The notes under the pieces: model-generated
What the model was told of the DNA's origin: nothing
The model's database searches: none
Seen by the model: the letters and a program-made list of their open reading frames with translations, nothing else
Made by a program: the position numbers and the translations under genes
Shown: positions 24,506 to 42,998 of the stretch, piece after piece
Layout of the letters: each line of letters opens with the position of its first letter
Numbering within the stretch: position 1 is the stretch's first letter
NCBI GenBank assembly: GCA_034668585.1
Contig: JAXDPB010000007.1
Coordinates: 19,051-83,050 of the forward strand
Direction: 5' to 3'
Length of the DNA stretch: 64,000 nucleotides
From: Sphingomonadales bacterium
GTDB taxonomy: Bacteria > Pseudomonadota > Alphaproteobacteria > Sphingomonadales > Sphingomonadaceae

Positions 24506-25546
24506 CTAGGCCTCGCTCAGCACGCCGCGGTAGTCCGGATCCTCCAGGGCACGCCCCGCCCCCATGGCCACGCAGGTCAGGGGATCTTCGGCCACGGCCA
24601 CGGGGAGGCCGGTCGCGAGCGACAGCGCCTCGTCCATCCGCCGGAGCAAAGCGCCGCCGCCGGTCAGAACGATCCCGCGATCGACGATATCGGCGGCAAG
24701 CTCGGGAGCGGTGTTCTCGAGCGCGGTTCGGACCGCGCCGATGATGTGGCTCACCGGCTCGGCAATGGCGTCGGCGACCTCAGCCTCGCTGATGAAAATC
24801 TCCTGGGGCATTCCAACCGACAGGTGGCGCCCCCGGACGCGTATCGTCGCCGCCTTGCCCTTGGGCGGGAGCGCGCTTCCGAGCTCGTGCTTGATTCGCT
24901 CCGCCGTGGCTTCGCCGATCATCAAATTGTATTTGCGGCGGACGGCGGCGGCGATCGCGTCGTCCATCTTGTCCCCGCCGACGCGAACGGAGGTGCTGTA
25001 GGCGAGGCCGCGCATCGACAGCACGGCGACCTCGGTCGTCCCTCCGCCGATGTCGACCACCATCGCCCCGACGGGCTCGGTCACCGGCAGCCCGGCGCCG
25101 ATCGCCGCCGCCATCGGCTCCTCGATGAGCCAGACCTTGGACGCCCCGGCGTTGGTGGCCGCATCGCGAATGGCGCGGCGCTCGACCGACGTCGACCCCG
25201 AGGGCACGCAGACGACGATTTCCGGGTGGCGCCCGAGCCGCGAAGGGCCGCCATGGGCCCTGTCGATGAAATGCTTGATCATCTGCTCGGCGACGTCGAT
25301 GTCGGCGATGACCCCGTCTCTCAGCGGCCGGATCGCCTGGATATGGCCGGGCGTCTTTCCCAACATCAGCTTGGCGTCGCGGCCGACCGCCTTCACTCGA
25401 CGGACGCCATCCGTCGTCTCGAGCGCGACCACCGAAGGCTCGTTGAGCACGATTCCCTTCCCGCGCACATAGACGACGGTGTTCACCGTGCCGAGGTCGA
25501 TCGCCATATCGTTGGAGGGAAGCCGGAAGAGACGCGAGAAAAGCAT
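24506..25546 (-). CDS. mreB: Rod shape-determining protein MreB (orphan copy, 346 aa)
   Basis: [60 protein letters not shown]; GGAGG upstream; no mreC/mreD nearby. Confidence 0.95.
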
Positions 25547-25786
25547 GACCGGGATGATCCCTCCGAAGCGGTCGTGGCGGATTCGATGCCACCAGGCGCA
25601 CCTACCGGGCAACGGGGCAGAAGTCGCCGCCGATTCGGGTGCACCGACCGAGCGGAAACGCCGTTACCGGCCCTAAGGCTTCAACACTGGTACGGACCGG
25701 GCCAAGCCATGAGGTCAATCATCCACTTCATGCCTTGTGCCCGCTCGGCGCGATCGCGCCCGCGAGGGCGCGCATCCGGGCGACGA

Positions 25787-26041
25787 TCAGGACGAGGAAG
25801 GCGATCGACCAAGCCCTGATTTCCAATTCCGCCCGTCCCGGTCCGCAGGGCTTTTCCGGCAATTGCCGAACTCGAAAGCGCCGCCCGGCGGGAAAGGCCG
25901 CTTCGAGCGGATATAGAGTTCGCCCTCGCTCACGGTCGCAACCGGATGTTCGGTATCGTTCGTCCGTTCATGCTCCAGCACGACCTTGTAGGGCTGCGCC
26001 TCGCCGGGCGTCACGACCACCCGTCCTCCGGTGACACTCAT
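25787..26041 (-). CDS. Small hypothetical protein (84 aa)
   Basis: GGAGAG before ATG; MSVTGGRVVVTPGEAQPYKVVLEHE...EHPVATVSEGE; co-directional with groEL. Confidence 0.55.
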   Translation of the reverse strand: MSVTGGRVVVTPGEAQPYKVVLEHERTNDTEHPVATVSEGELYIRSKRPFPPGGAFEFGNCRKSPADRDGRNWKSGLGRSPSSS

Positions 26042-26066
26042 TCCACTCTCCCTGCAAAGGTCTCCG

Positions 26067-26348
26067 TCAGGCGTCGTCGCTGATCGGGAACAGGAAATAG
26101 CCGCGTTCCGAAACGCCGTTCGTGATCTGGAGGGACGTCGCCCCGACCCGGCGGTCGGACGGGGAGACGAGAACCTCCTTCGCGTAAATCCAGGCCGATC
26201 CGTGGCTCGGCAGGTTCCCGCCGCTGGCGTCCGGAGTGAGCGCACCCCGCCAGCTGTCGGCCTTCACGAACTTGTGAAGGAGGATTCCGGCCGTGGCGGC
26301 CGTCGCTTCCGGGGCCGGAGCGGAGTCCGCCGCGCCCACGATCGTCAT
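26067..26348 (-). CDS. Small hypothetical protein (93 aa; alternative TTG start 26375)
   Basis: Directly downstream of groEL; W.G.T.D.SGGNLP...AW.Y.KE motif-like pattern. Confidence 0.55.
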   Translation of the reverse strand: MTIVGAADSAPAPEATAATAGILLHKFVKADSWRGALTPDASGGNLPSHGSAWIYAKEVLVSPSDRRVGATSLQITNGVSERGYFLFPISDDA

Positions 26349-26371
26349 CCTCTCGCTCACTTCGGATCCCC

Positions 26372-40644: not shown

Positions 40645-40772
40645 TGATACTATAGTATCAGCAGACATGACGATTAGTCTATTCAAAGTCCGTCCGTCAT
40701 GTCATAGACGCCAGTTTTATAGTCAGGCCATTAACGCCGAAACTTGATCGGAAATCGGCAATGGCGCGTCGC
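40645..40772 (+). promoter_or_regulatory. Conserved ~128-bp non-coding element, copy B, with perfect 18-bp palindrome
   Basis: ctgatactatagtatcag (40644-40661) is its own reverse complement; the element ends across the ATG of the downstream regulator. Confidence 0.7.
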
Positions 40773-41417
40773 GCATCTATAGCAGATCGAGTACAAACGG
40801 ACGGGGTTGAGCCCAATCTCGTCGTCATCGTCGACGACGACCCTTTCGTCCGCGAGGCCGTGAAGGCCCTGCTCCTGTCGGTGGGCCTCAAGGTGAATGC
40901 CTTCGCGACGGCACATGACTGCCTTGCCTGCATGGATCCGCAGAACACTTCCTGCCTCGTACTCGACGTCAGATTGCCGGACATGAGCGGCCTGGACTTC
41001 CATGATGAGCTTAGGCGCGCGAACATCCCCGTTCCAGTCGTCTTCATCAGCGGATACGCGGATGTTGGAATGTCGGTGCGCGCCATGAAGGCGGGCGCCG
41101 TCGAGTTTCTGCCTAAACCGTTTCGCGACCAGGACCTGCTGGACGCGGTTCAGCGGGGCATCGAGGAGAGCCGGAAGTGGCGCGAGAAGGAGGCTGCCGT
41201 GGCAGCCGTAAAGGCGCGCTGGGCCAGGCTGACGGCTCGCGAGCGCGAGGTGATGGTTCGCGTGGTCAAGGGCTTGCGAAACAAGGCGATCGCGGTGGAA
41301 CTTGGCATCAGCGAAGTGACCGTGAAGACTCACAGAGGGCAAGCCATGCTCAAGATGGGCGCCCGCACACTGCCCGATCTGGTACGAATGAGCGATGCGC
41401 TCGATCAGACTAGTTAG
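40761..41417 (+). CDS. FixJ/NodW-like response regulator (REC + LuxR HTH)
   Basis: IVDDD, VLDVRLP, ISGYAD, EFLPKPF, LTAREREV, TVKTHRGQAMLKM. Confidence 0.92.
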   Translation: MARRASIADRVQTDGVEPNLVVIVDDDPFVREAVKALLLSVGLKVNAFATAHDCLACMDPQNTSCLVLDVRLPDMSGLDFHDELRRANIPVPVVFISGYADVGMSVRAMKAGAVEFLPKPFRDQDLLDAVQRGIEESRKWREKEAAVAAVKARWARLTAREREVMVRVVKGLRNKAIAVELGISEVTVKTHRGQAMLKMGARTLPDLVRMSDALDQTS

Positions 41418-41778
41418 AAGTGGCGAGGCCGGCGATACTTACGGATCAGCTACCGGCCCTTAAGTTCCATATACAGGCCTGTCGCACGGGTCCACGCTGA
41501 CCACTCATCACGATGAGGTACGGCATGGCTCCCTATTATTTAGATGTCGATGGGGGCGCACGGTACAACTACGGTACGTTCCGCGACGAAACGGGCAGCC
41601 TCTTACTCCTCGATTCCGGCGCGTGCCAGCACGTCCCGCATGTCATTTCCGAAGACGAGGCGGACTTGCTCGCGCGCAACCGTGAGATCGCGCGACTCCC
41701 ATTTTCGTGGGTAACCTGACCGTGGCGGCAGCGTCGGAGCTTGAGCGTGAAAGCACGACCGCCCGCCGGGCCGACGGA

Positions 41779-42423
41779 ATGAGACGCCTCGTTCACATCG
41801 TCGACGACGACAGCGAGGTACGCGCGGCTACCAGCTTCATGCTGCGTCAGCAGGGATATGAAACCCAGATTTATGCGGGCGGTCCCGAATTCCTGAATCA
41901 AAGGAGATTGGATCGGGGCTGCGTTCTTCTGGACCTTCACATGCCCGAAATGGACGGCTTCGAGGTCCTCGGCAGGCTCGCGAGGCGTGACGTCGATTTG
42001 CCGGTCATCATCCTCACCGGCCACGGCGACATACCGCTGGCCGTCAGGGCGATGAAGCGAGGCGCTGTCGATTTCCTGGAACAGCCCTACGACGCCCACC
42101 GGCTCACCGGGGCGATCGAACGCGCTTTCGCCTTGGCCGACGAGAGCCAGGAGACGCGCCAGGCCAGAAGGGAGGCCGTCGCCAAGCTTAAGACCCTGAC
42201 CCCCCGGGAATCCCAGGTATTGCAGGGCCTGCGCGCGGGCATGCCGAACAAGGTGATTGCCCGTTGGCTCGCCCTCAGTCCGCGCACGGTGGAAGCCTAT
42301 CGCGCGAATATGATGGTGAGGATCGGGGTGACCGGAATGTCAAATGCGCTGCGCATCGCGAACGATGGAGGGTTGCCCGCGATCGAGGCAGGAACAGTCC
42401 AAGCAGGCCGGAATCTCAGGTAA
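41779..42423 (+). CDS. FixJ-like response regulator (REC + LuxR HTH)
   Basis: HIVDDD, LLDLHMP, LTGHGD, DFLEQPY, LTPRESQVL, LSPRTVEAYRANMM. Confidence 0.9.
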   Translation: MRRLVHIVDDDSEVRAATSFMLRQQGYETQIYAGGPEFLNQRRLDRGCVLLDLHMPEMDGFEVLGRLARRDVDLPVIILTGHGDIPLAVRAMKRGAVDFLEQPYDAHRLTGAIERAFALADESQETRQARREAVAKLKTLTPRESQVLQGLRAGMPNKVIARWLALSPRTVEAYRANMMVRIGVTGMSNALRIANDGGLPAIEAGTVQAGRNLR

Positions 42424-42527
42424 GTATTCTTACTGCGTAGTGATGCTCTGACGCCCCTTAAGAGACAGGATTATCGAAGAATGGTTCGCAAACTCTTCGG
42501 GCCTACGGGCCGGGATCGAATTCCATT

Positions 42528-42998
42528 TTGGAGCACCTCTTCAACAGCAGCGCCTTATGCACCGTTGACGCTGACGGGTGCGTCTCGCTGCCGCCCTTTG
42601 TCCGCACCACTCTGGAGCGGCGCTCGGACAGCCCGGCCGTGGTGATCGGTCTCCATGAGGCGGATCCCTGCCTCCGCGCCTATGACCGCGGCTACGTCCG
42701 GATTCTCCACGCCGACCACGAGCGTTGCCACCCGGCCGAAAGTAGCTCCGAGGTCCACCACGCCCGCGCCCGTCGAATCTTCGGGTTCACCGAGGAAGCG
42801 TGGTGCGACCTTGACGGCAGGATCACGCTGCCGCCGTTGATGCGCCGCAAGGGCAACATCGAGGATCTCGCGCTCTTCGTCGGGACCGGCGGCACTTTCG
42901 AGATCTGGAATCCGCAGCTCGCGCTCGAAGCCGGCGACGCCGCCCTGCGGGAGCTCGCCGCCTGGCGACTCGAAGAATTTCTGCCGCCGGCCAATTGA
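42528..42998 (+). CDS. mraZ: MraZ-like transcriptional regulator (orphan, TTG start)
   Basis: Two SpoVT/AbrB-like repeats: VDADGCVSLPPFVR and DLDGRITLPPLMRR...FVGTGGTFEIWNP; no rsmH downstream. Confidence 0.8.
   Translation: MEHLFNSSALCTVDADGCVSLPPFVRTTLERRSDSPAVVIGLHEADPCLRAYDRGYVRILHADHERCHPAESSSEVHHARARRIFGFTEEAWCDLDGRITLPPLMRRKGNIEDLALFVGTGGTFEIWNPQLALEAGDAALRELAAWRLEEFLPPAN

Follow-up and report, generated by a model that had tools for sequence, protein, structure and literature searches.

Bacillus subtilis possesses, in Mbl and MreBH, paralogues of MreB that lie without mreCD, and multiple groESL operons under the control of HrcA and its operator CIRCE (controlling inverted repeat of chaperone expression) occur in Alphaproteobacteria such as rhizobia. 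The conserved C-terminal peptide of FtsZ recruits FtsA-type membrane anchors. Duplicates of FtsZ have been described in Rhizobiaceae/Phyllobacteraceae, with full-length ones in Bradyrhizobium, and overexpression of FtsZ1 in Agrobacterium tumefaciens inhibits division, a tuning role having been proposed for it (bioRxiv 10.1101/2025.09.29.679267). MraZ binds 3–4 phased direct repeats, and in Mycoplasma genitalium MraZ the residues Lys13, Arg15, and Arg86 are each individually required for DNA binding (PMC12957436). Here, we analyzed a 64,000-nt stretch of DNA from a Sphingomonadales bacterium (assembly GCA_034668585.1, contig JAXDPB010000007.1, positions 19,051 to 83,050; hereafter, the window), which contains paralogues of ftsZ, mraZ, mreB, and groESL (ftsZ2, mraZ2, mreB2, and groESL2) within a sensory island. 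On balance, we lean toward reading these 19 kb as a mosaic of three accessory units with separate distributions, the core of which may be a signal-controlled modulator of division; that function is one that we infer.

The open reading frames (ORFs) in this high-GC region were screened by GC content at third codon positions (GC3) and then scanned against Pfam and NCBIfam. By these families, the orphan mreB, ftsZ, mraZ, and CIRCE-bearing groESL that a first-pass annotation had reported amid kinases and regulators are real genes, lying at or near the positions at which it had placed them. The ORF scan of the window revealed no mreC/mreD, ftsQ/ftsA, or rsmH/ftsL beside its mreB, ftsZ, and mraZ, which are surrounded, together with groESL, by 7 histidine kinases, 6 response regulators, a GGDEF-EAL protein, and an AraC regulator. 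Distribution counts refer to 156 species genomes of the genus (G-numbers), including the assembly under study (G000; 99 contigs, 3.5 Mb, 93.7% complete, contamination 4.5%), while L-numbers denote loci, several of which are on metagenome contigs. The conserved core consists of ftsZ2 divergent from a response regulator, mraZ2, a CHCC zinc-ribbon gene (orf143), and a PAS kinase, and its central features in the window are as follows.

35345–36757, minus strand: ftsZ2, a full-length FtsZ paralogue of 470 aa (TIGR00065 and Pfam).
36844–36861, minus strand: 18-bp element AGTATTGTTACGCCATAG (gene orientation), ~105 bp upstream of ftsZ2.
42423–42440, plus strand: second copy of the element, AGTATTCTTACTGCGTAG (gene orientation), ~105 bp upstream of mraZ2.
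42528–42998, plus strand: mraZ2, a paralogue of the dcw (division and cell wall) regulator MraZ (Pfam MraZ), first motif VDADGC.
43008–43439, plus strand: orf143, with an N-terminal CHCC zinc-ribbon-like domain, a disordered linker, and a long C-terminal helix (hydrophobic, then basic).

FtsZ2 is encoded in 3 of the 156 genomes (G000, G071, and G074) and on several metagenome contigs. The core recurs in L023, L024, L044, L045, and G074 (contig C11), with fragments in G071 and L075. In the four loci and on G074:C11, the plus-side order is kept, namely two to three regulators with receiver and GerE domains (REC-GerE), with or without an AraC regulator and a MEDS kinase, followed by MraZ2, orf143, and the PAS kinase; the other side holds the divergent FtsZ2, with or without a receiver and a hybrid kinase, an HWE kinase, and orf129. 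The layout extends to distant relatives: L044, the FtsZ2 of which is 68% identical, has ftsZ2 divergent from two regulators and mraZ-like and orf143-like genes, and L075 has an FtsZ2-like gene divergent from one REC-GerE regulator, a MraZ-like gene (57% identical), and an orf143-like gene (41% identical). Of the co-location claimed at first, the ftsZ-mraZ part within a sensory island is conserved in relatives. The spread is patchy; the nearest relatives by the FtsZ1 tree (G005, G009, G017, and G022) lack FtsZ2. We found no support for a recent exchange of the island between G000 and G074 by horizontal transfer, since the synonymous divergence (dS) of the island genes (0.31–0.42) falls within the housekeeping range (0.21–0.51); that of MreB2 is about 1.0. 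Every gene compared is under purifying selection, with overall ratios of nonsynonymous to synonymous divergence (dN/dS) of 0.05–0.49 (FtsZ2, 0.22–0.32; MraZ2, 0.18–0.30; orf143, 0.26–0.46; orf129, 0.27–0.32; GroEL2, 0.06–0.10; MreB2, 0.08).

FtsZ2 scores 384 bits against TIGR00065 (cut-off 295) and 154.8 and 119.7 bits against Pfam Tubulin and FtsZ_C, respectively. Its GTPase signature GGGTGTG and T7 loop VNLDFAD are intact (GGGTGTG/NLDFAD were also demanded by the pattern that retrieved the G074 orthologue). Its C-terminal peptide reads FPGVYNRR where canonical family copies read DIPRFLNRQ (DIPRFLGRQNNQ in the canonical form); the (F/Y)PGVYNRR tail is conserved in orthologues P0001–P0017, and canonical copies end in (L/I)DIPRFLNRQNNQ. 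From these motifs, FtsZ2 looks polymerization-competent, with a rewritten partner-binding C-terminal peptide. The gene is not dcw-distal, its neighbors being kinases and a receiver protein and not ftsA. Orthologues P0001–P0016 are 79–98% identical and two more are 66–68% identical, after which canonical FtsZ follows at about 60%. Maximum-likelihood analysis recovered FtsZ2 as a monophyletic clade (99 by the Shimodaira–Hasegawa-like approximate likelihood ratio test [SH-aLRT]), which sits on a long stem within the family-level FtsZ clade, adjoining other independent paralogue lineages. This position inside the family clade implies an old within-family duplication and not acquisition from a remote order. 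Additional FtsZ paralogue lineages, likewise independent, were seen in G015:C2 (L062), G019:C56 (L064), G023:C77 (L066), and P0022/P0028 (Sphingosinicella sp.), with other noncanonical C-termini, e.g., ...SPRFHRRQAA; FtsZ duplication is recurrent in this family.

Since MraZ2 is 63–67% identical to the canonical dcw MraZ of related sphingomonad genera, we consider it a true MraZ duplicate. Of the two SpoVT/AbrB-like repeats that make up the MraZ fold, Pfam PF02381 recognizes one in it (29.8 bits versus a cut-off of 23), the NCBIfam equivalog (NF001477 and relatives) covers its full length at 48.7 bits versus a cut-off of 162, and its family profile matches residues 4–131 of Mycoplasma pneumoniae MraZ (PDB 1N0E). 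The island clade is 81–91% identical. The gene does not head a dcw cluster; downstream of it are orf143 and a kinase, with no rsmH. We aligned MraZ2 with 120 homologue clusters, mapped it onto M. pneumoniae MraZ (PDB 1N0E), and compared the DNA-contact positions in M. genitalium numbering. The equivalent of Lys13 was kept in 0 of 17 island-clade clusters and 95 of 99 canonical ones, and that of Arg15 in 2 of 17 (mostly Cys) and 98 of 99, respectively; at the position of Arg86, the island clade has Arg or Lys in 17 of 21 clusters, with Arg in 96 of 99 canonical clusters. The window MraZ2 has Asp, Cys, and Arg at these three positions and thus retains the second DxxxR arginine. Because the base-contacting Lys13 and Arg15 equivalents are lost from the island clade, the initial premise, repression of dcw by MraZ, cannot be transferred to MraZ2. 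No copy of the box GCATGAAAWCCCC, seen upstream of the canonical mraZ of relatives, occurs in the window. Conserved tandem boxes GGCATGAAATCCCC-N6-8-GGCATGAAAACCCCTTCCATCCCC occur ~130–180 bp upstream of dcw mraZ in G007, G042, G044, and G074 (L030–L033) and are probably the sphingomonad MraZ operator.

The third core gene, orf143, encodes a protein for which C5, H10, C27, and C30 are invariant in the domain alignment. An HMMER search (E ≤ 0.001) found 422 cluster representatives, most of them matching just the N-terminal ~55 residues. In the AlphaFold model, a small beta domain is predicted with confidence (pLDDT [predicted local distance difference test] about 90), followed by a disordered linker and then a long C-terminal helix, and Foldseek found no match for the model in the PDB at E ≤ 0.001. 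Among families, DUF1660 alone gave a lead, and that a weak one (atlas score 0.84; 2 of 24 members at E about 0.02), the clusters being otherwise unnamed. A MraZ-like gene lies immediately upstream of an orf143-type gene in all 12 loci examined (the window, C56, G074 twice, L023, L024, L044, L045, L075/76, G408, G225, and G439), which fall into two paralogous lineages, the second comprising C56, G074:C35, G408, G225, and G439. In the C56 cassette (G000:C56:4617-9991; L036), a REC-GerE regulator diverges from a MraZ-like gene that shares 42% identity with MraZ2 and downstream of which come a 147-aa orf143 paralogue, a PCMT methyltransferase, and an MHYT-PAS-GGDEF-EAL protein; there is no FtsZ nearby. 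The possibility that orf143 is a truncated rsmH or ftsL was rejected; it encodes a Cys/His protein, and its C56 paralogue precedes the PCMT methyltransferase.

The orf143-type domain also occurs in other architectures. In P0402 (L046), an FtsZ paralogue that stands in tandem with a second one carries the domain as a C-terminal fusion, and elsewhere a transmembrane helix and a periplasmic SH3_3 domain come after it. The L046 locus (positions 6821–11359 of Logan contig SRR21419830_12288) has a membrane-anchored GerE-type protein and two small ORFs, followed by the two tandem FtsZ paralogues, of which the first, an unrelated accessory FtsZ, ends in EEPGVYRRNR and the second has an altered G-box, GGTTGTD, and the zinc-ribbon fusion. 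In L074 (positions 30–2334; JGI 3300055067 contig), the gene for a zinc-ribbon/transmembrane helix/SH3_3 protein is directly preceded by a bactofilin gene and a 108-aa ORF. The domain fusions and the bactofilin neighbor, each a single observation, do point toward the cytoskeleton.

The two units of the core share a cis element. Comparison of 7 ftsZ2 loci showed the ftsZ2-side copy in all of them, slightly altered in L025 and L044, the latter retaining it although the MEDS kinase gene is absent there; the mraZ2-side copy is conserved as AGTATTnnTAC in 6 orthologous loci. With one mismatch or fewer, the pattern AGTATTnnTACnnnnTAG matches the window twice versus 0.01 expected and the whole 3.5-Mb assembly 3 times, with two matches at the island and the third carrying one mismatch. 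A related sequence, GTAACGATAC, precedes the AraC gene by 30 bp. In addition, GATAC-type palindromes are found around the REC-GerE genes, namely CTGATACTATAGTATCAG (perfect; 40645–40662), GATACTATGGTGTC (39044–39057), and GATACTTACGGATC (41434–41447). They have an ATAC/GTAT half-site in common with the ftsZ2/mraZ2 element and, for this reason, are probably operators of LuxR-type regulators.

Canonical copies were sought by tblastn and family searches over the 99 contigs of G000, which established that mreB2, ftsZ2, and groESL2 are accessory paralogues. Specifically, C3 encodes an MreB 72% identical to MreB2, followed by mreC and PBP2; C87 encodes an FtsZ 58% identical to FtsZ2 and adjoining ftsA; and C26 carries the canonical groESL, with GroEL and GroES 85% and 75% identical to the window copies, respectively. 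For mraZ, the outcome was divided: the only other MraZ-family gene in G000, on C56 and 42% identical to MraZ2, also lies outside dcw, while the island-bearing G074 (99% complete) does have mraZ-rsmH on its contig C2, along with canonical ftsZ and canonical groEL, and canonical mreB on C1. Neither RsmH nor FtsI (the second PBP_dimer protein) was found anywhere in G000; the 5′ part of its dcw cluster (mraZ-rsmH-ftsL-ftsI) is therefore unassembled, and ftsA stops at the edge of C87. A third GroEL fragment was noted at a contig end (G000:C35:6313-6747), 94% identical to the C26 GroEL and 80% identical to GroEL2; it represents either a third copy or strain heterogeneity, given the contamination estimate.

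The remaining two paralogues belong to units of their own.

24506–25546, minus strand: mreB2, an orphan MreB paralogue (MreB_Mbl PF06723, 456 bits; TIGR00904, 473 bits, cut-off 366).
26067–26375, minus strand: orf102, which follows groEL2-type genes in 10 of 10 other loci examined.
26372–28412, minus strand: groES2 (28125–28412) and groEL2 (26372–28009; TIGR02348, 828 bits), a separate accessory unit.
28487–28513, strand not assigned: CIRCE-like inverted repeat upstream of groES2.

MreB2 is found in 31 of the 156 genomes (29 without the two unpublished genomes G065 and G067), groESL2-orf102 in 15, and FtsZ2 in 3, and the initial idea that the four genes form one conserved module was therefore not borne out. 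The MreB2 orthologues form a family-wide clade of about 95 clusters at 90% identity, apart from the canonical clade that holds the G000 MreB1. No mreC lies near mreB2 (mreC and PBP2 accompany the C3 copy). In 7 other contexts examined, four of them holding the closest orthologues (92–93% identical), MreB2 stands alone, and the 10 kb to each side contain no island gene. By this distribution, mreB2 is a widespread solitary MreB paralogue and a neighbor of the core rather than a part of it. Beyond mreB2 in minus-strand reading order, there are a PAS-HisKA_2 kinase and then a DUF308 protein.

The CIRCE-like repeat ~75 bp upstream of groES2 has 3 mismatches to TTAGCACTC-N9-GAGTGCTAA, with 0 matches expected by chance. 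CIRCE with 2–3 mismatches is also present in two groES2-orthologous loci and upstream of canonical operons, and HrcA is encoded on C20 of G000. Of the 15 genomes with groESL2-orf102, 12 lack FtsZ2, and the unit often lies beside a PAS-HisKA_2 kinase and a DUF308 gene; it directly adjoins the core in three loci (the window, L024, and G074) and does not in L023, L044, and L045. Judged by its repeat and neighbors, groESL2-orf102 is a predicted extra heat-shock chaperonin operon under CIRCE/HrcA, again adjacent to the core and not part of it. The groES2-groEL2 spacer (28010–28124) holds a GC-rich, hairpin-forming element (…GTCCCAGCGCAGGCTGGGACCCCAG…CCCCAGCCTTCGCTGGGGTGACG), which looks like a dispersed repeat of the repetitive extragenic palindromic type because its translation matches at least 6 other contigs (C26, C40, C98, C96, C14, and C31). 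An unannotated ORF of ~100 codons (25730–26040, minus strand; MSVTGGRVVVTPGEAQPYKVV...) sits between orf102 and mreB2.

The proposed mechanism would involve two divergent units, (a) ftsZ2, a receiver, a hybrid kinase, one or two HWE kinases, and a small Cys-rich ORF and (b) one to three LuxR-type response regulators, mraZ2, orf143, and a PAS kinase. The island kinases would sense signals and act via the LuxR-type regulators on the shared element, such that FtsZ2 and MraZ2/orf143 would be made together. FtsZ2 might then co-assemble with or compete against the housekeeping FtsZ, its altered tail engaging different partners, and division would be slowed, blocked, or re-tuned; this modulation of the Z-ring is what we infer by extension of the proposal for Agrobacterium FtsZ1 (bioRxiv 10.1101/2025.09.29.679267). 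For MraZ2 with orf143, a protein-level role is envisaged: they might poison or titrate the oligomers of canonical MraZ, or else serve as an adaptor on the side of FtsZ2. A bolder version, which we put forward as a long shot, holds that ftsZ2-mraZ2-orf143 is an unrecognized cytoskeletal control module, with MraZ2 dead for DNA binding and working on other proteins (housekeeping MraZ oligomers, for instance, or as an adaptor) and the orf143 CHCC domain acting as a new cytoskeleton-binding domain that would tether or antagonize FtsZ2 via the PGVYNRR tail. If so, the cell would have a signal-switched second Z-ring system.

Several points weigh against a division-modulating core. The window statistic for the shared element is partly circular because the pattern was built from the two sites found (its conservation and the whole-genome scan are independent of this), the FtsZ-zinc-ribbon fusion is known from one assembled contig, and the many basic residues after the C-terminal helix of orf143 fit poorly with a simple N-in transmembrane anchor. 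Moreover, the altered contact residues of MraZ2 could signify a new DNA specificity instead of lost binding. MraZ2 would in that case be a DNA-binding regulator of AGTATTnnTAC, autoregulating a private "mini-dcw" and controlling ftsZ2, with orf143 as its zinc-binding, anti-sigma-like membrane antagonist. The element does lie upstream of mraZ2 itself, as dcw MraZ boxes do, and upstream of ftsZ2; the contact residues are replaced in a protein that is not decaying, given the identity and dN/dS within its clade; the second-motif Arg/Lys is retained in 17 of 21 clusters; and the strict order of MraZ-like gene and then orf143 recalls sigma/anti-sigma gene order. Nevertheless, we regard this explanation as doubtful. 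At the Arg15 position, different clade members carry Cys, Gly, Ser, Asp, or Arg, a variation that looks like relaxed constraint and not like a new fixed contact. The element is present in a single copy, as opposed to the 3–4 phased direct repeats bound by MraZ (PMC12957436), and its partial GTA..TAC symmetry and the GATAC palindromes better suit dimeric GerE-type regulators.

A further point against our reading of separate units is that all three FtsZ2-bearing genomes of the genus carry groESL2-orf102, with core-adjacent copies in the window, L024, and G074. From this co-occurrence and adjacency, a functional link with the chaperonin is conceivable; the co-occurrence is a hint of association from genomes that are related and not independent observations. 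The same facts, together with the location of all four genes within about 20–25 kb in G000 and G074 despite block rearrangement, speak for the original proposal of one inducible morphology or stress module comprising mreB2, groESL2, ftsZ2, and mraZ2, with groESL2 as a dedicated chaperonin. We find it quite unlikely in light of the unequal distributions, the absence of island genes around the closest MreB2 orthologues, the cores in L023, L044, and L045 that have no adjacent groESL or mreB, the presence of CIRCE and not of the island element at groESL2, and an MreB2 dS between G000 and G074 far above that of the island genes. At the opposite extreme, the region could be a plastic accessory one in which unrelated paralogues and signaling genes gathered by chance, with no functional unit at all. 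The lower GC content across about 14–56 kb of the window, the mobile-looking cargo genes of the extracellular contractile injection system (eCIS) type and the DUF6603 cassette at the flanks, and the independent distributions of MreB2 and groESL2 would all fit such a history, which we hold to be very improbable: the ftsZ2/regulator-mraZ2-orf143 layout persists down to 57–68% protein identity in different chromosomal surroundings, a conserved cis element is common to both units, and the pairing of MraZ-like and orf143-like genes is repeated in a second paralogous lineage.

The genes between and around the core paralogues encode mainly HWE/HisKA_2 and HisKA kinases, receiver proteins, LuxR-type response regulators, AraC-DJ1, and PAS-GGDEF-EAL proteins. 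The MEDS kinase, three REC-GerE regulators, AraC-DJ1, MraZ2, orf143, and the PAS kinase are all encoded on the plus strand.

28845–29940, minus strand: HWE/HisKA_2 kinase, start approximate.
29995–30384, minus strand: orf129, a conserved small protein without a known family, with a C-terminal CxxC...CxC motif; island core member.
30552–31706, minus strand: PAS-HWE/HisKA_2 kinase.
31975–34740, minus strand: hybrid PAS-HisKA-HATPase-REC kinase.
34801–35262, minus strand: single-domain receiver protein downstream of ftsZ2.
36822–38416, plus strand: MEDS-HisKA histidine kinase, true start probably near 36996.
38413–39039, plus strand: third REC-GerE response regulator, coupled to the MEDS kinase.
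39256–40356, plus strand: AraC-family regulator with a DJ-1/PfpI domain; variable, being present in L023 and L045 and not in L024 and L044.
40761–41417, plus strand: second REC-GerE response regulator.
41707–42423, plus strand: LuxR/FixJ-type response regulator (REC and GerE) directly upstream of mraZ2, kept in relatives.
43501–45033, plus strand: PAS-HisKA histidine kinase, last gene of the mraZ2 unit, start approximate.
45030–47857, minus strand: receiver protein (45030–45506) and PAS-PAS-GGDEF-EAL protein (45428–47857), flanking the core.

The minus-strand ORFs at 36953–37405 and 37445–38338 were dropped as shadows of the MEDS kinase gene. The nearest named homologues carry the labels Allosphingosinicella, Sphingosinicella, and Sphingomicrobium. 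The Pfam scan gave no match for orf143, orf129/141, or orf102; there are no tRNA genes in the window and no Rfam families in 20000–49000, and the LOV (light, oxygen, or voltage) motif NCRFL is absent from all the kinases. The left flank (17675–20608) encodes a pair of proteins with an eCIS_core domain, of which one also has an Ntox16 toxin domain, as well as a DUF6714-like ORF, and a DUF6603 giant-protein cassette occupies the right flank from 48804.

FtsZ duplicates are known in Alphaproteobacteria. The gene company of FtsZ2, with a strictly linked MraZ paralogue and its zinc-ribbon partner, a private cis element, and densely packed sensors, is unusually informative. It raises testable hypotheses of a dominant-negative or repurposed MraZ, a partner switch at the FtsZ tail, and signal-gated control of division, while orf143 points to an unannotated domain family with 422 cluster representatives. 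The analysis also corrects the attractive but wrong idea that MreB2 and GroESL2 belong to the same module. In a full-text literature search, which did not span all journals, neither a sphingomonad FtsZ2 nor MraZ paralogues nor their pairing turned up as described.

Compared with the described systems, MreB2 resembles B. subtilis Mbl and MreBH in its normal length, its conserved N-terminal amphipathic start, and its location away from mreCD, and differs from them in belonging to a sphingomonad-specific clade and in being solitary in variable contexts. Similarly to the multiple groESL operons of Alphaproteobacteria, groESL2 is an extra operon, 85% identical to the housekeeping one, with CIRCE upstream and HrcA encoded in the genome; unlike those, it has a downstream 102-aa ORF and often lies beside a PAS-HisKA_2 kinase and a DUF308 protein. 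The sole resemblance of the island to the PhyR-NepR-EcfG general stress response is its HWE/HisKA_2 kinases, the EcfG promoter GGAAC-N16-17-CGTT having a single match in the window, at 12840, outside the island and at chance level. By analogy only, orf143 is similar to zinc-binding anti-sigma (ZAS) proteins and DUF1660 in having a small N-terminal Cys/His zinc-type domain and a hydrophobic helix and in directly following a regulator gene. It has no sequence or fold match to ZAS domains, however, its partner is MraZ-like and not a sigma factor, and other members of its family bear periplasmic SH3_3 domains or an FtsZ fusion. MraZ2 probably shares its fold family (PF02381) with canonical MraZ (M. 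genitalium, PMC12957436; M. pneumoniae, 1N0E), yet lies outside the head of dcw without rsmH, is always followed by a zinc-ribbon gene, and scores below the equivalog cut-off. As with Agrobacterium FtsZ1 and the Bradyrhizobium duplicates, FtsZ2 is a nonessential-looking second FtsZ beside a dcw copy, derived from an alphaproteobacterial duplication, here in the sphingomonads, another order and a group that bioRxiv 10.1101/2025.09.29.679267 does not mention. Unlike Agrobacterium FtsZ1, it is full length with a linker and has a distinct, conserved PGVYNRR tail instead of a truncation. FtsZ paralogues being known in Alphaproteobacteria, the island FtsZ2 is a further variant of them, which differs from the other duplicates in its restriction to 3 of 156 genomes and its tight linkage to a MraZ paralogue, a zinc-ribbon gene, and many two-component genes.

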